Positions 9,040 to 42,802 of a stretch of DNA of 64,000 nucleotides are shown one piece after another. The first letter of the stretch is position 1, and each line of letters starts with the position of its first letter. The notes under the pieces were generated by a model, which was given only the letters and a program-made list of their open reading frames with translations, did not search any database and was not told the DNA's origin. Both the position numbers and the translations under genes were made by a program. Where the stretch lies: assembly GCA_050187295.1 (NCBI GenBank), contig JBFWXQ010000016.1, forward strand, positions 25,944-89,943, given 5' to 3'. This stretch comes from Blastocatellales bacterium (GTDB lineage: Bacteria > Acidobacteriota > Blastocatellia > RBC074).

Positions 9040-9206
9040 AAATTCAAAAGTATTGGGAGAGTAGAAGCGTTCTGTTCGAAGCTCAACCTGTGAGCCGACA
9101 AGCAGTCACAGCATTGAATTCCAAATTGCAATCTACACACGCAAAAAGAGGCAGATGATCGAAGACCACCTGCCTCTCAAGTTTTGCGCCTTAGCGCGTG
9201 TTACGT

Positions 9207-11513
9207 TTACCGACGTCTGCGACGAGTTCCTCTTTCGGGAGTAACGTCGCCTACCGTGGATGGAGCCGGGCCTTCGGGATAAACACCGTTGGACGGAACC
9301 AGCCAGATGCGGACTTGCGAGCCGTCTGCGGAGACGCCCAAGTCGCGGACATCAATACGGTTGACGTCAATCGCAGTACCGAGTTTGCCATCGGCCAACC
9401 GGTCGCGAACGTTCTTCGCGCGGTCGAGACTCAAGCTTGCAGGTCTTTCCCTGTCAGCACGGTAGCCGTCAATAACGACCTTCGCGCCAGGGTCAGCCTG
9501 GAGAGCAGGAATGACCTTGCTCTGCAGAATATCCTTACAAGCGTTGTCAACTCGCGAATTGTTACGTCTGAACGTGACGCAATTGTCAATCACACTGGCA
9601 GGCGGTTTGGTCGGTTCGACGACAGGCGGAACCTTAATACTGGTACGCGCCGAGCCACTGGCCGAGCAATTACCAACATCCGAAACTGCCTTGACTGTGA
9701 CTTCGATTGTCGTGCCACCAGTGACACCAGTGGTGTCGAGTGTGGCATTCAGACCGCTGCCGCTGATGGTTCCAGCCGAAGCAGTCCATTCGTAAGTCAC
9801 GTTGCCATAATTGCGACCACCAGTGACGCCATTGGTCGAGAAGTTGACTCTCTCACCGGCGTCAACCGAAGTGGAGCTGACATTTACGTCGAGGTTCGGC
9901 CCGAAGCAAACTGTGAGGGGCGGGCAATTCGTGACTTTGATTGTCTTCGAATCAAAAGCGATACATCCGCAGCCGTCATCTACCTGAACCGTGATTGTGT
10001 AATCGCCCGGAGCCAGACCGGTAGTGTCAAAGACAGTGTTTGCGCCATCGCCAACAATGCGTCCGCCGGTCGTGCTCCACGAATAAACCAAAGCGTCGCC
10101 ATCCGGATCGGAAGCCGTCGCGCGCAGATCAACCTTGTCTCCCGCGCAAACCGTGCTGGCCGATTCGCGAAGCAAATCGTCCGATCCTTTCGCGACATTG
10201 CCAAGCGCCAGTGCCACTGTCGGCGGCTGGTTCGGGAGTAGAGGTTCTTCGCGGTCGTTGACATGGCCGATTGAAACACCGGCAATGAAACCGTTCGGGC
10301 TGAACCGGCTGTCAAGCTCTGAGAACCAGTTCAGATGGCGTTGATAGGCCGCGCTGATCGAAAGCCAACGAGTTGGGAAGACGCGAACGCCACCAACCAG
10401 ATCAACAGGGCTGTTGGTCAACAGGGAGGGTGTGCGTGATCCGACATAGTGTGTTGAGCTGACTTCGGCGATGAGTTGCAGGTATTGACTCAACGGAAAA
10501 TCAACAGCAATACCTGAACGCAACTCATTCGGGACATCCAGCGAACGTTCGCTGCGTCCGAAGCCCTGAATCACTCCACAGCCGGCACAAAGCGGACCAA
10601 GGTTCATATTTTCAGCACGCGGGTCGCCTTTTTTGATGAAGCCGATATTCGTGCTGAGATTGATATATTTATGCAACCGACCATCGAAAGCGGCAATCAC
10701 GCCGTAATCATAATTCCCTGTGCCTCGTCCACGTTCCAAACCTGTGGACAATTCGCGCGTGGTCGGAATCTTAACCAATGGAATCAAGGCGAAGCCAAAC
10801 GGATTCTTGGGTCCAGTGAAACGAATCTTCGCGCCTACCCAGACATCGCCCGTGTGATGATCTGAAAAGCGTGCCAGGAAAGGCGCATTAGGAAGGTAAT
10901 TCGGATTCACATTTGGAGCCAACGCAGGAAGGATGCCTCCGACCGGTGCTCCCAATCCGACATAAACAGCAGTGTCATTGCCGCTCGGACGCGCCACAAA
11001 AGGACCTGAAGCAAAACCGCCAAGCCCTCCTACATTCGGCGCACGGCAGGGCCCCGGGAATCCACCGTTGCCACAGGGATCACCAATTGTGAATGAAGCA
11101 GCGTTCTGCCCAGGAACAATCACCAGACGACCGACAGGCAATGACTTGGTCCTGACATCCGGGAGGTAAAAACCGCTGAGCAATGCTGGACTTCCAACCG
11201 TGACCACACGCTGAGCTTCGAAATTAGCGAAAATTTCCAGATGATCACTAAAACCAATCTGGAAGTTAACCGGATATACCTGCCAGGTTACATCTGCAGG
11301 GTCGCGATGAAAATGATTGGCGAAAAAACCAAAATTGAATTCACCTTTGCGCAAAGTCTGCGCGTCATAGACTGTAAAAAGTCCGGTGCCGCCATTGACC
11401 GTTGGGGCTAGGTTGCGAGGATCATCTGTTGAGCGTGGCGTCTGAGCTTGTGCCGCGACTCCGATGAACAAGAGCGCGAGCGTCAGACCGAGCAATCTTC
11501 TCGCAAAACTCAT
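9207..11513 (-). CDS. Outer-membrane/surface protein: N-terminal beta-rich domain, two PKD-like Ig domains, and an OmpA-like C-terminal peptidoglycan-binding domain
   Basis: Signal peptide [24 protein letters not shown]; strong SD GGAGGAG 6 nt upstream of ATG 11513. PKD-like segments [10 protein letters not shown]...[14 protein letters not shown] and VTYEWTAS...[15 protein letters not shown]-terminal [25 protein letters not shown] resembles an OmpA-family motif. Confidence 0.5.
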
Positions 11514-27549: not shown

Positions 27550-29853
27550 ATGACCAAACAGCCACAACCACAGTCAGTTTCGGCAGTCGACAGAAAATAT
27601 CTTTCAACAGGATTTAAGCATCTGGATGATTTATTGGGCGGGCCCGGTTTTTTGCGCGAATCAGTTATCTTGGTTCGCGGAGAACCGGGAACAGGAAAGA
27701 CATCACTTGCCTTACAAATCGCCCGAAATGCGATCAAAAACTTTGACCATTATCTTGTCTTCGTCTGTGCGGAAGATAAACCAGAGATTTCATTGAATCA
27801 GATTACCGAATCTTATTGGAACCAAGACTATAAGACTTATTTGGGAAACCAGGATAGATGGCAGGCGCTTGACATAGAGGTTTTAACCGAAAGTTGGAAT
27901 AGCCTGCCCGAGGCTGCCGCCGAAGAAATCAAAAAAGGCAAAAAAACTATCTGGAGCCTTATTGGTTTCGGATCATCGGATGAAGCGACCAAAGAAGATC
28001 TGACCAGGAAAAAACTAAGAGAGTTGGGCCAGGAAGAAATAGACAAAATGAGGATGGAGGATCTTCTAGGTAGTCTGTGGAAGTGGTTTATGCCTGAAAG
28101 GGAAAAACCACTGCTTGTGGTCATTGACAGCCTGAGCGCTCTGATTTACTGGGCACAAAGACACTTCAGGGCATATGACGACAGGTACATGTTGTTGGCC
28201 ATCATCCGTTCTTTTGAAAAAAGATGGGAACAGATGAGAATAAAACCTACGGTTATTTTTACCGCAGAAGATGCCGAAACTATCCATAGCAAAACCGCCG
28301 AAAGCTATATTGCCGATGTGGTCATTCAATTGCAGCGCGAGACAATCACTCACCCAATCCCGATTGCGATGGAAAAATCCGCAGACTGGCAAGAAGACTT
28401 GTTATTTTGCCGTGTGTTAAAAGGCCGTGGATTGCCCACTCAACGCCGATCCTGTTGCTATGAATTTGTTAAAGACCCGGAGAACAAGGAAAAGAACGGC
28501 ATTGATTTTTTTCCAACTTATGCCGCACAAGGGCTGATTTCACTGTTTCATGAAAACCTGCCTCAATTCGAGGTAATTCAGAACCTCAGAAAAGTTGACA
28601 TGCCATCTTCTTATCCGGGGGTTATCGTCCAGGAATTCACTCTATCGGGACTGCAAAGAATGTTTGCGGTGCGCAGGTATGTGAGGAAGATTCCTCCTCG
28701 GCATCCAATGCTGCTATCCCACGTTGATGAATATTGGGTTCAAGTATTGAAAGAAGCCGGCTTGCTTTACCCTATTCCAAGTGAGGCTCTTCGTATTTAC
28801 TCACTGCCTTTATCTGATGATAACCAAGTGATCAAAGAGTTAAGCGAGGCGAAGGCAAAAAGGTATCTTGACGATTCATCTGAGCCAGGCAAAGTCAATT
28901 TTCTGGCAGTGCCGCAAATGGGCAATGTCGGGTTGATGGTTTATCGCAAAGACCTGCTCAGATCCATTGGGATTGAAACGCCGCCGGAAACCTGGGAAGA
29001 ATTGGAAAGTATCGGCCGGGAATTGCAATCTCCGGATTTGCCACACCCTCTTCTGATTGAAACCCAGACCTACGACACATTACTGGTCACCGCGCTGGAA
29101 CTAGGTTGGGGACACGGATCGTTCTGGTCAACTAAGCGGGATGAAGAGAACAAGGAAAGGCTCTTTATCAAACTTGAATCTGACAACGAAGCCTGCTTTG
29201 ACGATTTCGTTGTATCACTAGAAAGATTACGCCGTTGGATTCACGAAGATAAATTTGTTCCGATGCAATCAAGTGTTGACCCGGCCAAACATCCCAAAAC
29301 GGATTGGGTCTTTGCGCGGCATTGGTATTCGACCTGGGTGGATTACCGAACACGACCAAACAAGAAAAAAAGCAGTCTGATGGCCCAAATAAAAGAGAGT
29401 GATGAATTTGGAATCGCGAAAATTCCTATCTCCAAAGAGTATATGAAAAGGCAGAACACCCATTTGCCCAAACACCATTCCAGTTCGGGTGAATGGTATC
29501 TGGTTATTCAGGCCAACTCTGAAAATGTCGAATTGGGAATAGACCTCATCAATAACCTGATGTCTTCACGAAAAGTCACCGAGCGGGCGTTGGCAGGTGT
29601 TGAATTACCTGTTATGGAAAAGTTTTATGAAGCCTATGGATCGGTTTCGTGTTATGGCACAGATAAGACATTTAGCGAAATGCGCCAGATGTTCGCCGCT
29701 GATGCACGCAGCAGAGCGGAATTTGATGATTACAGGAAAGTCGGGCGAGTGCTTTACGGCGTTCTTCAGGCGGTTGTAACAAACCAATCAGTTAACGTCA
29801 GGGAATTGCTGGTCGACGCATTTAGGAGGCTTGATCCTGATTTCAAACCATAG
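27550..29853 (+). CDS. KaiC/RecA-superfamily single-domain ATPase fused to a type-1 extracellular-solute-binding-protein-like domain (no signal peptide)
   Basis: GFKHLDDLLGGPGFLRESVILVRGEPGTGKTSLALQIA (KaiC/RadA-like Walker A) and LLVVIDSLSAL (Walker B). C-terminal half shows SBP_bac_1-like segments (LMVYRKDLLRSIGIETPPETWEELESIGREL; GEWYLVIQANSENVELGIDLINNLMS). SD AGGAGG. The gene is visibly AT-richer with AGA/AGG Arg codons. Confidence 0.5.
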   Translation: MTKQPQPQSVSAVDRKYLSTGFKHLDDLLGGPGFLRESVILVRGEPGTGKTSLALQIARNAIKNFDHYLVFVCAEDKPEISLNQITESYWNQDYKTYLGNQDRWQALDIEVLTESWNSLPEAAAEEIKKGKKTIWSLIGFGSSDEATKEDLTRKKLRELGQEEIDKMRMEDLLGSLWKWFMPEREKPLLVVIDSLSALIYWAQRHFRAYDDRYMLLAIIRSFEKRWEQMRIKPTVIFTAEDAETIHSKTAESYIADVVIQLQRETITHPIPIAMEKSADWQEDLLFCRVLKGRGLPTQRRSCCYEFVKDPENKEKNGIDFFPTYAAQGLISLFHENLPQFEVIQNLRKVDMPSSYPGVIVQEFTLSGLQRMFAVRRYVRKIPPRHPMLLSHVDEYWVQVLKEAGLLYPIPSEALRIYSLPLSDDNQVIKELSEAKAKRYLDDSSEPGKVNFLAVPQMGNVGLMVYRKDLLRSIGIETPPETWEELESIGRELQSPDLPHPLLIETQTYDTLLVTALELGWGHGSFWSTKRDEENKERLFIKLESDNEACFDDFVVSLERLRRWIHEDKFVPMQSSVDPAKHPKTDWVFARHWYSTWVDYRTRPNKKKSSLMAQIKESDEFGIAKIPISKEYMKRQNTHLPKHHSSSGEWYLVIQANSENVELGIDLINNLMSSRKVTERALAGVELPVMEKFYEAYGSVSCYGTDKTFSEMRQMFAADARSRAEFDDYRKVGRVLYGVLQAVVTNQSVNVRELLVDAFRRLDPDFKP

Positions 29854-32973: not shown

Positions 32974-35121
32974 TCATTTCTTCGGCAAGGCAAACGCCAC
33001 GTAACTGCCGCCCGAGGCTGAGCCTTTGCCGCCTCCGCAGGCGATGACGATGAATTGGCGTCCGCCGGCTTCGTACATCGCCGGTGTCGCGTTGCCAGCC
33101 GCGGGCAGTTCTGTTTCCCATAACAATTGTCCGGTCAGTTTATCGAAGACGCGAAACTTTTTGTCGTAATTTGTCGCGGCGATAAAGAACAAACCGTTTT
33201 TGGTGACAATGCCTCCGCCGTAATTTTCGCTGCCGGTGTTTTTCATTCCCTTCGCGGCCAGCGCTGGATATTCGCCGAAAGGAATCTGCCACTTGATTTT
33301 GCCGGAATTCAAATCAATCGCGTTCAGCGTTCCCCACGGCGTGGCGATGGCCGGATAACCTTCGTTGTCCAGAAATTTGTTGTAACCGGTGTGCGTGTAT
33401 TTCAAATCAATCGGGTTCGCGGGCAAATCCACTACTTCTTTCGAAACGACGGTGTCCTTGCCTGACAGTACGTACATGGTAATCGCCTGAATCGCATCGC
33501 CGCCCAATCTGGCAAATCCAGGCATGCGCCCCAGACCATTGCGAATCAAACCACGCAAATCCTGATCGCCCATCTTGCTGGCCAGATTTTTCAACGAAGG
33601 AAATTCCGGCGGCGAACCGCTCATGTCTTTTTGGTGACAGTTGGCGCAATTTGCTTCGTAAAGCGATTTTCCGCTGACCTGTTTGGCTTTGGCGCGCGGA
33701 ACCAGTTGCAGTATCCAGGCCATCTCGTTGGCATTGACGTAAAGCAATCCGGTTTCAGGATCGAAAGCCGCGCCGCCCCATTCTCCGCCGCCATCGTAAC
33801 CAGGAAAGATGATTGTTCCTTCAAAACTCGGCGGTTCAAATTGCCCGTTGCTGCGAATCTTGCGGAATTTGTCGAGCGCGAATTGATGAGCTTCGGGCGT
33901 ACGTTTGGTCAGCATATCTTCGGTCAATCGCTGCCTTGCGAAAGGTTCAGGCAAAGAAGGCAGCGGTTGGGTTTCAGCCAGCTTTTCGCCCTCAACCTCA
34001 GATTGCGGATATTTTCGGTATTCAATCGGGAACAATGGTTTGCCGGTCGCCCGCTCAAACAGATAAACGTGGCCGGATTTGGTGATCTGAGCGATGGCGT
34101 CAATATTGCGCCCGTTTCGTTTGACCGTTACCAATGCAGGGGCTGACGGAAAATCTCGATCCCAGACATCGTGTTTGATCGCCTGAAAATGCCAGATACG
34201 TTTGCCAGTGTTGGCGTCCAGACAAAGCAATGTATTGGCAAACAAATTATCGCCGTGGCGATTCGCTCCGTAAAAATCGAAGGCCGATGAACCGGTCGGA
34301 ACAAAAACCAAACCGCGTTTCTGATCAACAACCAGTCCAGCCCAATTGTTGGCTCCTCCCAAAAAAGAACGCGCATCTTTCGGCCAAGTGTCGGCGCCGA
34401 GTTCGCCCGCAGCCGGAATCGTGCGAAAGCTCCAGCGCAATTTTCCCGTTCGCAAATCGTAAGCGCGAATGTCGCCCGGCGCGGCAGGCAAACCTTCGCT
34501 GACCAGGCTGCCGATGATCAGCATGTCTTTGAACACCACGCCCGGCGTGGTCAGCATCACCGTCAAACCGTCAATCTGCTGGCGTCCCAAATCCTTGCGC
34601 AGATCAATCCAGCCGCCTTCGCCAAAGGATTTGACCGGCTGGCCGTCTTTGGCATCCAGCGCGTACATACGATTGCGATAACCGACGAACAATCGTTTCT
34701 CGTTTCCATCCTGCCAAAAAGTCAGTCCGCGATTGCGCATCTTGCCGAAACCCTTGCGGCCTTCATTCGGATCGAAGCCCCAAATCTCTTTGCCGGTCGA
34801 TGCGTCCAGCGCCACTATCCGCAATTTCGGCGTCGTGGCGTACAGCACTCCATCAACGACAATCGGATTGCACTGCATCTCCGAACCGTCGAATTCATCG
34901 CCACTGTCGTAACGCCAGGCGATTTCCAACCGGCCGACGTTTTCGCGCGTGATCTGAGACAGTTCGGAATAATGAATGTTTTCTTCGCCGCCGCCGAACA
35001 TTCGCCATTCGCGGTATCTGGTCGAAGTCTTACCGCTTTGCGCTTGCGTGCCGTAAACGAAAAAGCCCAAGCCGGCCATCAACGCGACGGCGATTCCAAG
35101 TTTCAATGTTTTCATAAGCAT
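32974..35121 (-). CDS. PQQ-dependent dehydrogenase (eight-bladed propeller, alcohol-dehydrogenase-like) with an internal mono-haem cytochrome c domain
   Basis: C-terminal [12 protein letters not shown]...YVAFALP blade typical of PQQ-ADH; CANCH haem-binding motif; signal peptide. Probable start ATG 35121 (or 35115); the ORF track extends to 35229. Confidence 0.6.
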
Positions 35122-35422
35122 TTTCCGGGAGTTGGGATTGAGTAACGCGTGCAGACTGTAGTGGCGAGAAGTTCGGATTTCAAGGCAGAAAATTTTGTGC
35201 TGCGGCTTTGGAAGCAATTGCCAATTCAACGGGAGACTGCTGATACCTGAAACCCGACTTCTGATTCCCGATGATTCCCAAAAAATCTCTGCGGCATTAG
35301 CCTTTTAAATCGGTTTGCACTTGAATGTACGGTGGACTGTCCAGTCTGCCGATGTCTCGGCCAGCGTGCGACTGCGGCAGGCTAAACAGCCTACCGTACA
35401 CTGATTTGAAATCTGATCTAAG

Positions 35423-36766: not shown

Positions 36767-37309
36767 ATGCTAATATCCATAACAACCAAAGCATTGAGGT
36801 CAATTGACCGCTTATTTTTGCTGCCACATGGAAAAAAGATGAAATCACCTTCGCAGGAAAAAAACGGTAAGAAAAGCGCAAGCGCTCTGCGCCATCAGCG
36901 TACGTTGATGCCGGATTCCGAACTGCCGCCGGAAGCACAGGAGTTGCGACTGAAATTCCGGGAATGGCATGACAGCTTTCAAACTCGCGCCAAGCGAATG
37001 GCCTTCATTCGCAAACTCTGCCGAAGAATTGCCGAAGCTTATCAGCCGGAAAAGATCATTCTCTTCGGATCGCACGCTTACGGAGAACCAACTCCCGAAT
37101 CGGACGTGGATTTGATGATCGTCATGGATTACGAAGGCAGACCTATTGATCAGATACTGAAAATTCAACGCGATCTGGATTTAGTTACGCCAGTGGATTT
37201 GTTGATTCGCAGACCGAAAGAAGTGAAAGAGCGATTGCAAGACGGCGATATGTTTATCACCGACGTTTTGCAGCGAGGTAAGGTGATGTATGAAAGCGAG
37301 TACGATTGA
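36767..37309 (+). CDS. Minimal nucleotidyltransferase (MNT) antitoxin-like protein; true start probably internal (about 36838 or 36907)
   Basis: KIILFGSHAYGEPTPESDVDLMIV is a Pol-beta-type NTase motif (GS...DxD). Confidence 0.6.
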   Translation: MLISITTKALRSIDRLFLLPHGKKMKSPSQEKNGKKSASALRHQRTLMPDSELPPEAQELRLKFREWHDSFQTRAKRMAFIRKLCRRIAEAYQPEKIILFGSHAYGEPTPESDVDLMIVMDYEGRPIDQILKIQRDLDLVTPVDLLIRRPKEVKERLQDGDMFITDVLQRGKVMYESEYD

Positions 37310-37676
37310 ATGGATAGAAAAAGCCGAAGGCGATTTTGACATGGCATTGCGAGCATACCGCGCCCGCAAACGCCCGAATTACGATGCCGCCTGTTTCCAC
37401 GCCCAACAATGCATTGAAAAATACCTGAAAGCCCGATTGAACGAAGCCGGGATTGTTATCCAGAAAACTCACAATCTGGTTGACCTGTTGAATGACGTTT
37501 TACCCGCCGAGCCAACCTGGGCAACATTGCACATTACGCTCGCAACCTTGACAAAGTACGCTGTCCTTTACCGATACCCAGGCTACGATGCGACCAAGCT
37601 TGAAGCCAAAACTGCCATCAAAGATTGCCGCAATGTTCGTCGAATCATACGCACGGTTTTTGGATTGCCAGTTTGA
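37290..37676 (+). CDS. HEPN-domain protein (toxin partner of the MNT)
   Basis: 128 aa; HAQQCIEKYLKA...KTHNLVDL HEPN-like Rx4-6H region; 20-nt overlap with the MNT gene. Confidence 0.6.
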   Translation: MKASTIEWIEKAEGDFDMALRAYRARKRPNYDAACFHAQQCIEKYLKARLNEAGIVIQKTHNLVDLLNDVLPAEPTWATLHITLATLTKYAVLYRYPGYDATKLEAKTAIKDCRNVRRIIRTVFGLPV

Positions 37677-37714: not shown

Positions 37715-40700
37715 TCATTCACCATTCACTGCCTTTCGCAAAGTTCGTCCAGCCAGCGCGCCATTGTATTTGCTGTTTTCCACAGACAGTTTGCCGTTGA
37801 CGAAAATGAAGCGCAAGCCTTCGGCTTGTAGCTCCGGCTGGTCGTAAGTCGAACGGTCGGCGATGGTCTTCGGATCGAAGACAACCACATCAGCAAACCA
37901 GCCTTCGGCCAGTTTGCCGCGATTGCGCAGGTGAAAGGTTTCGGCGACTTGCGAACTGCTGGCCTGGATCATTCGCTCCATTGAAATGATTTTGCGGTTC
38001 AAAACGTATTCGCGAATCTTGCGCGGATACGTTCCCCATTTGCGCGGATGACCGCCAGAACCGTCAGAGCCGGTCATCACCCAAGGCTGACCCATGAAAT
38101 TTTCAATGTCGGCTTCGGTCATGTTGAACGAAGTCACTCCGGCGTTTCCGGCTTTGATAATTTCCAGAGCCGTTTCAACCGGCGATTTGCCGCGCGCGCG
38201 AGCGATTTCGTCCAGACGTTTGCCGACCAGATTGCGGTCGGCTCCGCCGCGAATCAACAGAGAGTTCGCGCCGCCGCGTCGTTTCAAATTCACTTCCATT
38301 TCGGCAATCAGCTTCGGACGAATGGCCGGATCGTCAATGCGTTTGAGCATTTCCTGCCTGCCGCCGGCTTCGGCCCAACGAGGCAGCAGCGCTGCGCTCA
38401 ACCCCGTCCCCGAAGCGATGTAAGGATATTGATTGGCCGTGACGTTGACGCCTTCAGCGCGAGCGCGGTTGATCAGCGCAATGGCCTCCCCGCTTTTGCC
38501 CCAGACATCCGCGCCCAGAGCTTTGATGTGAGAGATGTGAACCGGAATGCGGGCTTCGCGTCCGATGCGAATGACCTCCTCAATCGAACCGAGCAGGCCA
38601 ATGGTGTAAGAGCTTTCATCGCGTTGATGCGTGTCGTAAACGCCGCCGAATTCAGCGGCGATTTTGGCCAGTTCGATGACTTCTTCGGTTTTTGAATAAC
38701 TGCCCGGCGCGTAATACAAACCTGTCGAAAGCCCAATCGCGCCTTCGATCATTCCCTGCCGCACCAGAGCTTTCATCTTTTCCAGTTGCTCAGCCGTTGG
38801 CGCAGCATCAACCGATCCCATCACCGCCTGTCGAACCGCGTTGTGACCGACGAAGGAAGCGACGTTTGTGCCGATGCCTTGCGTTTGCAATTGCTGCAAA
38901 GCTTTGCCGAGCGGTATCCGGCTGCGTCCATCGCTGCCGATGAAAACGGTCGTCACTCCCTGAGTCAGAAAGGCCAGATTCGCGTTTCGCTTGGGATCAA
39001 AAAGATCCTCGTCGGCGTGCGTATGCGGATCAATGAAACCGGGAGCGACGATCAAACCTGCGGCGTCAATCACGCGGTCGGCTTGAACGTTCGCGGTTGC
39101 GGCATCGCCGACGAACGTGAGGCGGTCGCCGGTGATGCCGACATCTGCCTTTATTGCCGGACTGCCGGTGCCGTCAATCACACTGCCGCCGCGAATCAGC
39201 GTGTCAACTTTTGCGGTTTTAGGTTTGGCAGTTTTCAGGTGGCGTTCAAAGAAATCAAACGAAGCTTTGTAAATTTTGACCCAATGCCGATGCAGCAAAA
39301 AGTCATGAACTTCGTCGGGGAAGACAATCGTTTCGTGCGGAACATTCTGTTCGCGCAATCGGCGGACAAGATCAACCGTTTGCGAAAAAGCCACGTTGCG
39401 GTCGTCGTCGCCATGAATCAGCAAAACCGGGGAGCGCCATTTTTCAACCGAACTGACCGGCGAAGCTTCAAAGGCGATTTTCACCGCGTCGCGATTGCCG
39501 TATTCGACCCAGTTGGCGTTTGAAAGTCGCACCGACCAATCGTGAACTCCATGCAGATCAACTCCGGCGGCGAACAAGTCCGAATTGCGAGCCAATCCAA
39601 GAGCAGTCAAATACCCACCATAACTGCCTCCCCACAAACCAATGCGAGCCGGATCAATGTCCGCGCGCGAACGCAGGAATTGCGCTCCGGCGACTATGTC
39701 CTGATATTCCGAAGCTCCGCGACCGCCGCCGTTCTTGGCCTGTCGAAAAGCACGACCATAACCAATGCCCAGACGGTAATTGACTGACAAGACGGCGTAA
39801 CCACGGCTCGCCAAAAACTGATTGAAGCCGTAAGCATTGTGGTAGTAGTACCGATTATGCCAACCCAGAAACATCTGCCGCATCGGGCCTCCGTGCATGA
39901 ATATCACCGCAGGCAATTTGTCCGAAGGTTTGGCGTCTTTGGGCAGGAACAATTGCCCGTGAATTTCCTGGCCGTCGGCAGCTTTGAATATGACTTGCTG
40001 TGGTTTTACGAGATTCTTTGCCGAAAATAAGTTTTCGTTCTCAAACCTGAGCTTTAGATTCACTCCGTATGCTTCAGATTCCGGATTAATCTGATTGAAT
40101 GTCGAAATGGAGATTCTACCTGGCGCAAATGCATCGGATTCAAAATAACAGAGTTTGTTCCCGTTGCCTGTAATGGTTGGTTGCCATTGAATGCTTTCAT
40201 CTCTTTGCGGCCCGTTTGGCGTCGCAAGATTGCCAGTAAGCGAGTAGGGCTGGCCGCCCGTAACAGGAGTGCGCCAGAGATGACGACGATCAATGTCTTC
40301 GTGATTTGAAGAGTAAACGACGTAACGACGATTGGGGCTGAAGTTCATTGTTTCAATTTCACTGGCAGTCGGAGAAAGTGCTATTACTTCGCCTCCACTG
40401 GCCGCAATCGAATAGAGCCGCATCCAGCCGTCCATTTCCGAAGCGAAGACCAGCCGATTATCCGCAGCCCATTGCAACAGGTTTTCTCCAGCCATTCGCG
40501 GCGGGCTGTCTTCCGGGCGATTGCCGCTGCGCCAGATTTCTTTGGCGATTCCTGTTCCGGCGTCGGCTACCCAGATCGTCCAGGGATCGGGCGCGTCCTG
40601 CGTCAACGAACGAGGAGCGTTGCCGCGAGCCGGTTGGCGAATGAACGCAATCCGCTTTCCGTCCAAAGACCATCGCGGCGCGGAGTCGCGGTCAACCGAA

Positions 40701-41389
40701 GGCGAGATGTAACGAATCGTCTGTTTTTCAAAATCGTAAACGCCGATGTAGCTGTGAGTGCCGCGCGAACTGTTGAACGCCAGTTGTTTTCCGTCCGGCG
40801 ACCATTGCGGCGTGATGTTGATGCCGCGCGCAACGAAAAGCTGATGAGGTTCGGAACCGGCGGCGATTTCGACAATGCCGATTTGCCGGTTGCGGTTGTA
40901 TACGACGCGGTAATCGGTGGGCGAAACAACCGGAGAATCGCCTTCGGCCAATGTCACTGTGCGACCGCTGGCGACTTCGACGGCCAGAATTTCCTGCTTT
41001 GCGCCTGCTGTGTCGCTGGTTGGATTCGGAACTTCGCCCGCCGAGTTTTCTCCGCCGCCGCGCACAAACACTATCCATTTGCCGTCGTGAGTGAAAACCG
41101 GATCTGTGATTTCCTGCCCGGTGTCTTCGTTGTATTGCGTCAATTGCCGAGCCTTGAAATCAGGCCCGTCCGCAACCCAGATGTTGCGCTTGCCTTCGGC
41201 GTCAAAAACCCAGGCAATGCGCTCGCCAACCGGCGCGGCAATCAGGTCTGAGGGAAAGGGTGAGCTAAGAACCTGTTCAATCGTGAAGCCGCCGCTTTGC
41301 TGAGCAGTCGCGCGAGCGAAGTTAAACCACACAGCGCCAGCGATAAAAGCAACGGCGCAGAACGAAACAAGAATCCGTCTGATCTTCAT
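37715..41389 (-). CDS. Secreted three-module protein: TolB-like WD40 beta-propeller, prolyl-oligopeptidase-family (S9) peptidase, and C-terminal N-acyl-D-amino-acid deacylase/amidohydrolase
   Basis: Signal peptide from ATG 41389; propeller repeats (SPDGK..AF); S9 GGSYGGY nucleophile motif with HGDDD; C-terminal LIRGGSVIDGTG...APGFIDPHTHAD metal-dependent amidohydrolase motif. Confidence 0.6.
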   Translation of the reverse strand: MKIRRILVSFCAVAFIAGAVWFNFARATAQQSGGFTIEQVLSSPFPSDLIAAPVGERIAWVFDAEGKRNIWVADGPDFKARQLTQYNEDTGQEITDPVFTHDGKWIVFVRGGGENSAGEVPNPTSDTAGAKQEILAVEVASGRTVTLAEGDSPVVSPTDYRVVYNRNRQIGIVEIAAGSEPHQLFVARGINITPQWSPDGKQLAFNSSRGTHSYIGVYDFEKQTIRYISPSVDRDSAPRWSLDGKRIAFIRQPARGNAPRSLTQDAPDPWTIWVADAGTGIAKEIWRSGNRPEDSPPRMAGENLLQWAADNRLVFASEMDGWMRLYSIAASGGEVIALSPTASEIETMNFSPNRRYVVYSSNHEDIDRRHLWRTPVTGGQPYSLTGNLATPNGPQRDESIQWQPTITGNGNKLCYFESDAFAPGRISISTFNQINPESEAYGVNLKLRFENENLFSAKNLVKPQQVIFKAADGQEIHGQLFLPKDAKPSDKLPAVIFMHGGPMRQMFLGWHNRYYYHNAYGFNQFLASRGYAVLSVNYRLGIGYGRAFRQAKNGGGRGASEYQDIVAGAQFLRSRADIDPARIGLWGGSYGGYLTALGLARNSDLFAAGVDLHGVHDWSVRLSNANWVEYGNRDAVKIAFEASPVSSVEKWRSPVLLIHGDDDRNVAFSQTVDLVRRLREQNVPHETIVFPDEVHDFLLHRHWVKIYKASFDFFERHLKTAKPKTAKVDTLIRGGSVIDGTGSPAIKADVGITGDRLTFVGDAATANVQADRVIDAAGLIVAPGFIDPHTHADEDLFDPKRNANLAFLTQGVTTVFIGSDGRSRIPLGKALQQLQTQGIGTNVASFVGHNAVRQAVMGSVDAAPTAEQLEKMKALVRQGMIEGAIGLSTGLYYAPGSYSKTEEVIELAKIAAEFGGVYDTHQRDESSYTIGLLGSIEEVIRIGREARIPVHISHIKALGADVWGKSGEAIALINRARAEGVNVTANQYPYIASGTGLSAALLPRWAEAGGRQEMLKRIDDPAIRPKLIAEMEVNLKRRGGANSLLIRGGADRNLVGKRLDEIARARGKSPVETALEIIKAGNAGVTSFNMTEADIENFMGQPWVMTGSDGSGGHPRKWGTYPRKIREYVLNRKIISMERMIQASSSQVAETFHLRNRGKLAEGWFADVVVFDPKTIADRSTYDQPELQAEGLRFIFVNGKLSVENSKYNGALAGRTLRKAVNGE

Positions 41390-41668
41390 AAGCAATTTTC
41401 CGAGTTGATGGTTGATGTTGGTTTGGCGAAACCTGTCCGGCGCGAACGATAATACAGTGGCGCGTGAGTGACAACCGTCAGAAACCGCCGCGATCAGACT
41501 AATGTAGCCAATTCCAAATTTTTCTATTTGAGTTCTGCAAGAAGTTCGCAAAGCCGCCGTTCATCTGTCACCAACTCCGAAATCACTGGCATTAAACACG
41601 TCTGCCGACGAAACCTCATCGGCAGGCTCAGACAACCATTTTAACAAGCGACATCAGGAGGCAAGTTT

Positions 41669-42802
41669 ATGAAAGTCTGCCCGAAGTGTGCTCGCAGCTT
41701 TGCTGAAGGGTTTCAATATTGCCCGCAGGATGCCAACGAGTTGGTCAAATACGATCTGCGCGTTCACCTGAACCGCCAGAGCGAATTTCAATTTTTACTT
41801 CCGTCGGAAACCTTGCTGGTTCGATTGCGGCGGGAACTGTCCTCAGCCTTAATTGAATTCAAACACAACCCGCGAATTTTTCTGGCTGGGTTGCTGCGTG
41901 GCGAAAAGAGCAGCCGCAGGCGCAAACGATTGCTGCAGGCGGGCGTGGCATCGGCTGTGATCGTTTACGGCGCAGTGATGACGGCTGGATTGCTGATCGG
42001 GCTTTTCACTTCTTCGCTGCATTCGATCGAAGCGGGAAAGCCAATTGAAAGGAATATCAGCGACGAACCGATATTCACTATTCCGCTGGTGGCAGCCAAA
42101 ACTGAGAAGACAAACAAGGCCAAAACGAATCAGGGATTGCTCGGCGGCAGTCTGCCAAAGAGGGGGCGTGCTCAAGGTGGCGGCGGTGGCAACGATGAGA
42201 CTCCAGCCAGCAAAGGCGTCAATCCAACGCCATCGTTGTCGCAGCAATTGATGAAACCTGATTTGAGTCCGCCGGAAATTCTCAACCCAAGCTTGGTTGT
42301 CACCCCGACCATTTACGCCGACCCGAAATCATTTTTGAAAGCAACAGGGCCGATCGGCCTTCGCAATGGCCAGACTGAAACACCTTCGCTCGGCAATGGC
42401 CCCGGAACCGGAATCGGCCCCGGCAATGGTCCGGGTTATGGTCCCGGCGAAAACGGAGGCGTTGGCGGCGGCAAGTTCAAACCCGGTGGCGGAGAAACTA
42501 CCGGCACGGGCAATGAAATATTTGCCCAAACTCGCGACCTTCGCCCAACGATCATTTACAAAGAGCGCGCAAAATATACCGAGGAAGCCCGGCAAAACAG
42601 GATTCAGGGAACAGTTGTCCTCAGCCTGATCTTCGGCGCTGATGGTCGCATTCACGACATTCGTCCGGTTCACAATCTGCCTTACGGTTTGACCGAAGCG
42701 GCAATCGAAGCGGCGCAGAAAATCCGCTTCAATCCGGCGCTGCGAGAAGGGCGTCCGGTCAACGTGCGTTCGCAAATCGAATTCAACTTCACGCTTTACT
42801 GA
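41669..42802 (+). CDS. Zinc-ribbon / TM / Gly-Pro-rich / TonB C-terminal domain protein
   Basis: N-terminal CPKC...CPQD zinc ribbon; TM helice VASAVIVYGAVMTAGLLIGLF; GPG-rich linker; C-terminal TonB-C-like RIQGTVVLSLIFGADGRI...REGRPVNV. Confidence 0.55.
   Translation: MKVCPKCARSFAEGFQYCPQDANELVKYDLRVHLNRQSEFQFLLPSETLLVRLRRELSSALIEFKHNPRIFLAGLLRGEKSSRRRKRLLQAGVASAVIVYGAVMTAGLLIGLFTSSLHSIEAGKPIERNISDEPIFTIPLVAAKTEKTNKAKTNQGLLGGSLPKRGRAQGGGGGNDETPASKGVNPTPSLSQQLMKPDLSPPEILNPSLVVTPTIYADPKSFLKATGPIGLRNGQTETPSLGNGPGTGIGPGNGPGYGPGENGGVGGGKFKPGGGETTGTGNEIFAQTRDLRPTIIYKERAKYTEEARQNRIQGTVVLSLIFGADGRIHDIRPVHNLPYGLTEAAIEAAQKIRFNPALREGRPVNVRSQIEFNFTLY

Follow-up and report, generated by a model that had tools for sequence, protein, structure and literature searches.

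The stretch of DNA analysed here (the window) comprises 64,000 nucleotides from a Blastocatellales bacterium (Acidobacteriota; assembly GCA_050187295.1, contig JBFWXQ010000016.1, positions 25,944 to 89,943 of the forward strand). Its minus strand carries a gene that encodes, in one polypeptide, a serine peptidase of family S9 and a D-aminoacylase-like amidohydrolase, joined by a short linker and preceded by a signal-peptide-like N-terminus. In the order of translation, the gene is laid out as follows.

37715-41389, minus strand: fusion gene, starting with ATG at 41389; 1224 codons plus stop (3675 nt), with the stop codon at 37715-37717
41303-41389, minus strand: signal-peptide-like N-terminus, residues 1-29 (MKIRR, hydrophobic core, A27-T28-A29, then Q30)
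40040-41296, minus strand: N-terminal beta-propeller with PD40 repeats, about residues 32-450 (Pfam, AlphaFold2)
39236-40039, minus strand: S9 alpha/beta-hydrolase catalytic domain, about residues 451-718 (Pfam, ortholog alignment)
39209-39235, minus strand: inter-module linker KTAKPKTAK, residues 719-727, a Lys/Pro stretch of 9 residues modelled as coil by AlphaFold2
37718-39208, minus strand: D-aminoacylase-like amidohydrolase, residues 728-1224 (Pfam, NCBIfam, alignment with 1M7J, Foldseek)

The open reading frame (ORF) containing the gene runs uninterrupted on the minus strand over 37715-41551 in the ORF listing, where it opens at an upstream TTG. The initial annotation of this DNA had placed the gene at 37715-41389, beginning at an ATG internal to the longer frame, and these coordinates proved correct; the length of 1243 amino acids given with them was a miscount, as translation yields 1224. 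ATG 41389 is likely the start codon, because a protein of 100% identity to the 1224-amino-acid product, from a Blastocatellales metagenome-assembled genome (MAG) at NCBI (P0001), begins there too. Its title, 'MAG: prolyl oligopeptidase family serine peptidase [Blastocatellales bacterium]', covers the peptidase only, whereas the names at JGI list both Clusters of Orthologous Groups (COGs). One further element was located about 57 nt upstream of the ATG, within the TTG-extended ORF.

41446-41474, minus strand: sigma-70-like promoter match

The count of such matches equals that expected from shuffling, and the match is at most a hint that lends weak support to ATG 41389. The encoded N-terminus (MKIRRILVSFCAVAFIAGAVWFNFARATA, followed by QQ) combines a basic n-region, a hydrophobic core with a 12-residue Kyte-Doolittle mean of 2.8 and an A-x-A site, as judged by a hydrophobicity heuristic and not by SignalP, and a lipobox is not present in this sequence. 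By the same heuristic, comparable N-termini were found in 107 of the 115 full-length fusion orthologs and also in standalone relatives of the two halves. This agrees with the signal peptide that had been proposed ahead of both modules, and the fusion protein is probably exported, to the periplasm or further out in a diderm cell.

A protein search of NCBI, JGI, ENA and Logan assemblies gave 120 best matches with 55-100% identity. The motifs GGSYGG and DPHTH occur together in 119 of them, and 115 have a length of 1100 amino acids or more. Some of these orthologs lie on contigs of 3.3 and 9.5 Mb, and the two modules share one frame in the seven genomes L001-L007, each representing a species, where they lie 12-45 nt apart by the ends of the tblastn matches. 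The uninterrupted ORF and the same architecture in orthologs bear out the claim that both catalytic modules reside in a single polypeptide, and the concern raised alongside it, a fusion artefact, is answered by the ortholog search, which recovered the continuous ORF in more than 115 independent protein clusters. Across 57 aligned full-length orthologs, which share 59-90% identity with the window protein, Ser589, Asp661-663 and His695 of the peptidase are invariant, as are His789, His791, Asp820, His921, His954, Lys956, Tyr988, Asp1109 and Arg1116 of the amidohydrolase; purifying selection therefore acts on the two catalytic centres. There is very little doubt that the fusion is real and conserved, that both active sites are intact and that the folds are as stated below.

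Clustering at 50% folds the whole fusion family into one representative (P0106), and going by source labels, the S9-amidohydrolase fusion appears to be essentially restricted to one shallow family of Blastocatellia. An ortholog of 55% identity (L082) keeps the gene order GATase-UvrA-fusion gene-PQQ (pyrroloquinoline quinone) dehydrogenase-MutS seen in the window, and the fusion gene has therefore been inherited vertically. A conserved operon partner was not found around the fusion orthologs, where only chromosomal synteny and a divergent TonB_C gene recur. Each half also occurs as a separate exported protein, with a signal-peptide-like N-terminus, in related bacteria. Orthologs of the S9 module alone (46-60% identity) are widespread and were found in Pyrinomonadaceae, Terriglobia, Bryobacteraceae, Gemmatimonadota, Verrucomicrobia, KSB1 and Aminicenantes. 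A paper describing the fusion, or one linking Blastocatellia to D-acylases, was not found in the literature, and no solved chain in the Protein Data Bank (PDB) spans both modules according to Foldseek. Both enzyme families are well known; what is new is a lineage-restricted bifunctional architecture built on a Cys-less (Asp) D-aminoacylase fold. As a side observation, several MAGs from 'binchicken' co-assemblies (L002, L017, L031, L032, L038 and L068) are labelled 'uncultured Heliobacteriaceae' or 'Eubacteriales'; their genes are 47-63% identical to the window protein and lie next to those of Acidobacteria-like relatives, and the labels look unreliable.

The S9 module holds a Ser-Asp-His triad, in which Asp663 is presumed to be the triad Asp by analogy with Asp708 of DPP4.

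39623-39625, minus strand: Ser589, nucleophile in GGSYGGY (residues 587-593, 39611-39631)
39401-39403, minus strand: Asp663, in HGDDDRNV
39305-39307, minus strand: His695, in EVHDF

Pfam placed PD40 (E 1e-19), DPPIV_N at residues 308-387 and Peptidase_S9 at residues 524-719 (E 5e-43), and the GGSYGGY motif of an S9 nucleophile, noticed in the initial annotation, was thereby confirmed at residues 587-593. An HGGP motif is also present, and the order of the triad, the GxSxGG elbow and the N-terminal propeller are all as in family S9. In PDB sequences, the N-terminal part matched bacterial dipeptidyl peptidase IV (DPP IV) and other S9 enzymes best, at E values of about 1e-34 and weaker, with 5YP1 at 4e-34 and 2ECF likewise among the DPP IV matches; the best NCBIfam model for the module was Dpp5, far under its cutoff. 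Structural comparison by Foldseek against the PDB gave template modelling (TM) scores of 0.59-0.73, in alignments of 715-805 columns over whole S9 enzymes, for 5YP1 and 2ECF (DPP IV), 8WT1 (S9 carboxypeptidase), 5YZM (an S9 peptidase of D. radiodurans) and 5L8S (acylaminoacyl peptidase), the last of which had the top target-normalised score of 0.73.

A TolB-like propeller had initially been counted as a third module, and this part of the description did not hold. The region of about residues 45-450 is all-beta in the AlphaFold2 model, with about 30 strands and a predicted local distance difference test (pLDDT) score mostly of 85-95, and it belongs to the S9 peptidase as its N-terminal half. 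The TolB propeller model TIGR02800 of NCBIfam reached 83 bits against a cutoff of 343 and covered only about 100 residues, and a separate TolB module was rejected, the PD40 repeats being part of the S9 propeller. Standalone S9 orthologs of about 690-730 amino acids likewise hold propeller and catalytic domain as a single unit. The protein is a fusion of two modules, not three.

The amidohydrolase module was aligned with the D-aminoacylase of Alcaligenes faecalis DA1 (AfDam), and the residues of its active site correspond as follows.

39017-39025, minus strand: His789/His791 (HxH), aligned to His67/His69 of AfDam
38930-38932, minus strand: Asp820, in the context FIGSDGRS, aligned to Cys96 of AfDam
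38627-38629, minus strand: His921, aligned to His220 of AfDam
38522-38530, minus strand: His954 and Lys956, aligned to His250 and Lys252 of AfDam
38426-38428, minus strand: Tyr988 of the YPY motif (NQYPY), aligned to Tyr283 of AfDam
38063-38065, minus strand: catalytic Asp1109, aligned to Asp366 of AfDam
38042-38044, minus strand: Arg1116, aligned to Arg377 of AfDam

Pfam identified Amidohydro_3 at residues 772-1201 (E 2e-18), the NCBIfam model PRK09061 matched over its whole length, and the A. faecalis D-aminoacylase in PDB sequences matched the C-terminal 510 residues with E values of 1e-81 to 2e-83; like those for the S9 domain, these values are far too low to arise by chance. Foldseek gave TM scores of 0.84-0.86 for 1M7J, 9G5M (Klebsiella D-acylase), 3GIP and 9KB1. 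The profile check of the C-terminal subfamily, which had been suggested with the initial annotation, thus came out as D-aminoacylase-like, with PRK09061 matched in full and dihydroorotase models in part only. An identity as dihydroorotase or hydantoinase was rejected: the dihydroorotase, hydantoinase and allantoinase models of NCBIfam scored 35-51 bits against cutoffs of 279-728 and covered only about 45-150 residues, those for dihydroorotase just the first 70-100 or so residues of the module, and the bridging position is taken by Asp820 and not by the carboxylated Lys of the dihydroorotase/hydantoinase type.

The initial designation as a D-aminoacylase module stands for the fold, the HxH motif, the His ligands and the catalytic Asp; it does not extend to Cys96, which is replaced by Asp820. 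In AfDam, BbDam and PpOngB, this Cys is the ligand by which the Cys-His-His site of subtype V is defined (PMC12017989, PMC12149444). In the fusion family, the beta metal site has an invariant Asp820 in place of the Cys of subtype V. At this position, 70 of the 150 representatives (clustered at 50% identity) that are nearest to the amidohydrolase module have Cys, about 60 Asp and a few Glu or Gly; by this count, the Asp form is a large natural sister group. D-aminoacylase relatives without the bridging Cys have proven D-acylase activity, and the question has been raised whether such Cys-less enzymes possess other natural activities (PMC12149444). The module of the fusion protein fits the description of these Cys-less 'cluster B' enzymes, to which it can be assigned tentatively by the missing Cys alone. 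A set of Lys, Tyr and Arg binds a carboxylate-mimicking sulfate in PpOngB (PMC12017989; roles also discussed in PMC12149444), and the equivalent alpha-carboxylate set of Lys956, Tyr988 and Arg1116 is kept in the alignments with 1M7J and with the orthologs; the substrate is therefore expected to be N-acylated or N-aminoacylated with a free alpha-carboxylate. The inserted domain of the module exceeds that of AfDam by about 35 residues and contains an invariant PRWAE.GG motif.

Modelled by AlphaFold2 with a 57-sequence alignment, the fusion protein has a mean pLDDT of 83.3 and a predicted TM score (pTM) of 0.60. The model runs from the propeller through the alpha/beta-hydrolase and a coil to a beta-sandwich with a (beta/alpha)8 barrel and an inserted alpha/beta domain, and the linker coil connects the final helix of the S9 module with the strand that opens the amidohydrolase. 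The spacing between the modules is 85-106 residues in 113 orthologs, and seven carry linker insertions of 100-140 amino acids. One such in-frame insertion lies at 9182-9541 of locus L083 (ortholog P0091), and others are present in P0084, P0088, P0095 and P0100. The inserted peptide is of low complexity and resembles a 'translated repeat' (…LKAPRGRHTAAQGSALG…TQGVALGYPIAPSWG…), and its DNA contains an internal inverted repeat with 47-nt arms of 79% identity. This sequence pattern suggests a small palindromic mobile element that is tolerated at this place. Other copies of it were not found among the retrieved loci, where only its own internal inverted repeat was seen.

The company that the amidohydrolase keeps in other proteins was surveyed in the same 150 representatives, of which about 30 are multi-domain. 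The following partners were found.

Beta-lactamase/S12-type domain (PF00144), eight proteins: P0131, P0154, P0169, P0175, P0215, P0253, P0267, P0258
Beta-lactamase2: P0177
Peptidase_S13: P0232 (also at locus L064)
Peptidase_M14, three proteins: P0132, P0146, P0155
Penicillin amidase, two proteins: P0152, P0162
Formamidase: P0123
CN-hydrolase: P0262
Second amidohydrolase: P0121, P0158, P0180
Asp/Glu racemase: P0181
Nucleoside hydrolase, one protein: P0167

The scanned partners are overwhelmingly other amide-bond hydrolases. Families S12, S13 and M14 include D-Ala-D-Ala carboxypeptidases, D-aminopeptidases and murein-peptide amidases, and a D-amino-acid or cell-wall-peptide theme therefore fits. 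The repeated fusion or clustering of the clade with S12/S13, M14, penicillin amidase and Asp/Glu racemase supports, without proving, the link to D-amino-acid or N-acyl peptides that had been proposed initially. A fusion of great length was seen in P0258 (1991 amino acids), in which a D-aminoacylase-like amidohydrolase, PD40 repeats, Amidohydro_1 and the beta-lactamase domain PF00144 occur in one protein.

Gene neighbourhoods of relatives show similar associations. In a Gemmatimonadales locus (L020, 2554-9378), a beta-lactamase-family gene and two tandem PD40-S9 genes are followed after 34 nt by a standalone amidohydrolase, which bears a signal peptide, has the Asp ligand and is 57% identical to the window module. 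The order S9-S9-amidohydrolase is found again in a metagenomic locus (L084, 1875-7512), and the amidohydrolases of the two loci are 57-58% identical to the window module. A MAG of Acidobacteriaceae (L064, 4396-9834) carries a Peptidase_S13-Amidohydro_3 fusion of 1071 amino acids, located 70 nt upstream of a 717-amino-acid ortholog of the window S9 module with 46% identity. Peptidase_S13 is D-Ala-D-Ala carboxypeptidase 3. In the amidohydrolase of this fusion, the HxH motif is gone (the sequence there reads FIDMLGQ), and the position of Cys96 is occupied by Glu. Around the 80 metagenomic loci with standalone amidohydrolase orthologs, several genes of the beta-lactamase family or S13 lie within 1.5-4 kb, and one M14 gene lies directly upstream.

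Taken together, these observations lean somewhat towards an exported bifunctional enzyme that acts sequentially on unusual peptides, acylated or containing D-amino acids; the substrates, the stereospecificity, the export and the sequential action are inferred. The gene would have arisen by joining two enzymes that are each autonomous and exported in relatives, and Sec export would put the bifunctional hydrolase outside the cytoplasm. There, the propeller-gated S9 module may cleave short peptides and not folded proteins, trimming oligopeptides from environmental or cell-wall debris. The amidohydrolase would act on amino acids whose carboxylate is free and whose amine bears an acyl or aminoacyl substituent, which it would split off; its expected substrates would be N-acyl-(D)-amino acids or dipeptides of the type Xaa-(D)-Xaa. 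Two enzymes of the D-aminoacylase kind, Gox1177 and Sco4986, were reportedly found by Cummings et al. in 2009 also to hydrolyse L-Xaa-D-Xaa dipeptides. As N-blocked or D-residue products resist ordinary peptidases, the amidohydrolase might finish them to free amino acids for uptake. Most likely, the modules are autonomous and the fusion serves consecutive steps of one catabolic task, and is not a structurally integrated machine.

Several points weigh against this sequential scheme. Coupling of the two modules is not obligatory: in Pyrinomonadaceae (L008, L009 and L056), the halves are separate, unlinked genes with 60-62% identity, 71 of 80 loci with S9 orthologs lack such an amidohydrolase within about 6 kb, and about 75 of the 80 loci with standalone amidohydrolases lack an S9 partner within the same distance. 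Among the latter, only L084 shows an S9 operon and three more have a nearby S9 gene on the opposite strand, and adjacency to S9 is not a conserved trait of standalone amidohydrolase orthologs in this set. Since linker insertions of 100-140 amino acids are tolerated and the pTM is 0.60, neither a fixed interface nor a channel finds support. Identity to the best characterised S9 relatives is just 16-21% in structural alignments, NCBIfam matches fall far short of their cutoffs, and the S9 module may be an amino-, dipeptidyl-, carboxy-, acylaminoacyl or endopeptidase.

The same facts favour the best-surviving alternative, namely that two independent exported enzymes with unrelated substrates are merely co-localised, the fusion ensuring their co-expression and co-export. 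In line with this, the halves are autonomous and unlinked in close relatives, standalone orthologs of either half mostly lack the other as a neighbour, the short linker is flexible, and the amidohydrolase clade joins many unrelated partners, nucleoside hydrolase included. Yet throughout the family, at identities as low as 55%, the fusion persists and both active sites are invariant, the domains joined to the clade are mostly hydrolases of peptides or amides and not a random set, and links to S9 by operon or fusion recur in Gemmatimonadales and Acidobacteriaceae. Mere co-localisation is thus possible, though on the unlikely side.

A narrower version of the preferred sequential scheme, as a bacterial equivalent of the mammalian pair of acylpeptide hydrolase and aminoacylase, would have an S9 module of the acylaminoacyl-peptidase kind release N-acyl-amino acids, which the amidohydrolase then deacylates. 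GGSYGG together with HGGP presumably resembles the motifs of S9C (acylaminoacyl peptidase) in MEROPS, 5L8S is the top structural match, and the carboxylate site for an N-acyl-amino acid is retained in the amidohydrolase. DPP IV, on the other hand, is marked by GWSYGG and a Glu-Glu anchor for the N-terminus, and the anchor region cannot be aligned with the S9 module of the fusion protein. Against the acylaminoacyl route stand the DPP IVs 5YP1 and 2ECF as the closest solved S9 enzymes by sequence, Dpp5 as the best NCBIfam model, and the S9 carboxypeptidase 8WT1 as a further structural neighbour, and it is regarded as rather unlikely in this specific form.

More doubtful still is the proposal that the C-terminal module acts on an N-acyl carboxylate other than an amino acid, such as an oxidised amino sugar or a beta-lactam-derived or xenobiotic amide. 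OngB provides a precedent for a D-aminoacylase fold switching to GlcNAc1A (PMC12017989), other activities of Cys-less enzymes have been queried in a review (PMC12149444), the exchange of Cys for Asp and the longer inserted domain with PRWAE.GG mark a distinct clade, and the partners include beta-lactamase-fold and penicillin-amidase domains. However, structure alignment gives the module 34-35% identity with AfDam and only 26% with OngB, Cys-less relatives have proven D-acylase activity (PMC12149444), and the fusion partner here is a peptidase. An artefact of assembly or annotation merging two adjacent genes, conceivable as the source is a metagenome-assembled genome, was rejected and can be dismissed, because the ORF recurs in over 115 clusters that are independent of one another, some of its copies lie on contigs as long as 3.3 and 9.5 Mb, and it runs in a single frame in L001-L007.

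D-amino acids and N-blocked peptides, originating from cell walls and secondary metabolites, are a sizeable and slowly turned-over pool of soil nitrogen. Blastocatellia are common soil oligotrophs, and an oligopeptidase combined with a D-acylase-type amidase would recycle that pool. The most useful lead is the recurrent fusions with DD-peptidase-type, M14 and penicillin-amidase domains, which point to an unstudied group of two-step peptide degraders. Such degraders and the Asp variant of the D-aminoacylase metal site both matter for enzyme annotation, since the NCBI name covers the peptidase only, and for biocatalysis with D-amino acids. The finding is useful but not surprising, and no new chemistry has been demonstrated. 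A bolder conjecture, unlikely to hold as a whole, is that the exported Asp-ligand D-aminoacylase-like clade forms a distinct metal-centre subtype that carries out the terminal step of D-peptide disassembly and has repeatedly been welded to upstream peptidases. If so, the substrates of the clade would be peptidoglycan stem peptides, non-ribosomal peptides and lipopeptides met in the extracellular space or the periplasm. Joined to S9 in Blastocatellia and to S12, S13, M14 or Ntn-acylase elsewhere, its members would be two-step degraders of 'necromass peptide', and abundant soil Acidobacteria would possess, in the S9 fusion, a machine dedicated to the recycling of D-peptides, possibly by channelling.

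Other genes in the window complete the picture of the locus. Convergent with the fusion gene lies a pair resembling an MNT-HEPN toxin-antitoxin system (36767-37676, plus strand), in which a nucleotidyltransferase (Polbeta/NTP_transf_2, 180 amino acids) and a HEPN protein (128 amino acids) overlap by 20 nt. Because the syntenic region of L082 lacks it, the pair has probably been inserted locally, with the fusion gene on one side and the genes for acyl-CoA dehydrogenase and PQQ dehydrogenase on the other. The latter (32974-35229, minus strand) encodes a PQQ-dependent alcohol/glucose dehydrogenase of the quinohaemoprotein type with a C-terminal cytochrome c and is syntenic in L082. Divergent from the fusion gene, a 377-amino-acid protein (41669-42802, plus strand) starts with a zinc-ribbon-like region, is rich in Gly and Pro in its middle part and ends in a TonB_C domain; this divergent gene recurs at L001 and L083 and not at the other orthologous loci, and a TonB-dependent receptor was seen about 2 kb upstream at L081. 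Further away, a 767-amino-acid ORF (27550-29853, plus strand) combines an N-terminal match to a KaiC/RecA-like ATPase with a match to a bacterial extracellular solute-binding protein (SBP_bac_1), which is unusual.

Compared with known systems, the amidohydrolase module shares its three-part fold with AfDam (1M7J, 1RJP), KleDacyl (9G5M) and the N-acyl-D-Glu deacylase Bb3285 (3GIP). AfDam and the fusion module both have the HxH motif and the equivalents of His220, His250, Asp366, Lys252, the Tyr of YPY and Arg377. They differ in Cys96, the bridging and beta-site ligand of AfDam, which corresponds to Asp820, and their identity is only 34-35%. Furthermore, AfDam begins at the beta-sandwich without a leader, whereas the fusion module appears to be exported and is fused to a peptidase. 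The 'cluster B' D-acylases, such as Gox1177 and those of Microbacterium natoriense and several Streptomyces (PMC12149444), lack the canonical Cys as well; they are single-domain enzymes, and the presumed likeness to the fusion module lies in the missing Cys. The GlcNAc1A de-N-acetylase PpOngB (9KB1) has the same fold and the same carboxylate-binding set of Lys, Tyr, Ser and Arg, but it is a single-domain protein of the cytoplasm that keeps Cys-His-His and shares 26% identity with the fusion module. In other fusions of the amidohydrolase clade, an exported module with 37-57% identity, often with the Asp ligand, is joined to a different partner domain.

The S9 module has propeller and hydrolase, triad order and GxSxGG in common with bacterial S9 enzymes, namely 5YP1 and 2ECF of Pseudoxanthomonas/Stenotrophomonas, 8WT1, 5YZM and 5L8S of Sporosarcina. 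DPP IV has GWSYGG where the fusion protein has GGSYGG, and the N-terminal half of the propeller is of the PD40 type and not alignable to DPP IV by sequence, the alignment starting at residue 302. In mammals, N-acetylated peptides are degraded by two enzymes, acylpeptide hydrolase (APEH, S9C) and then aminoacylase-1. These are separate, cytosolic proteins, and aminoacylase-1 is an L-specific enzyme of the M20 family unrelated to the amidohydrolase superfamily. By analogy, the proposed action of the fusion protein would follow the same logic, in which an S9 peptidase releases an N-blocked product and a metal-dependent deacylase hydrolyses it.

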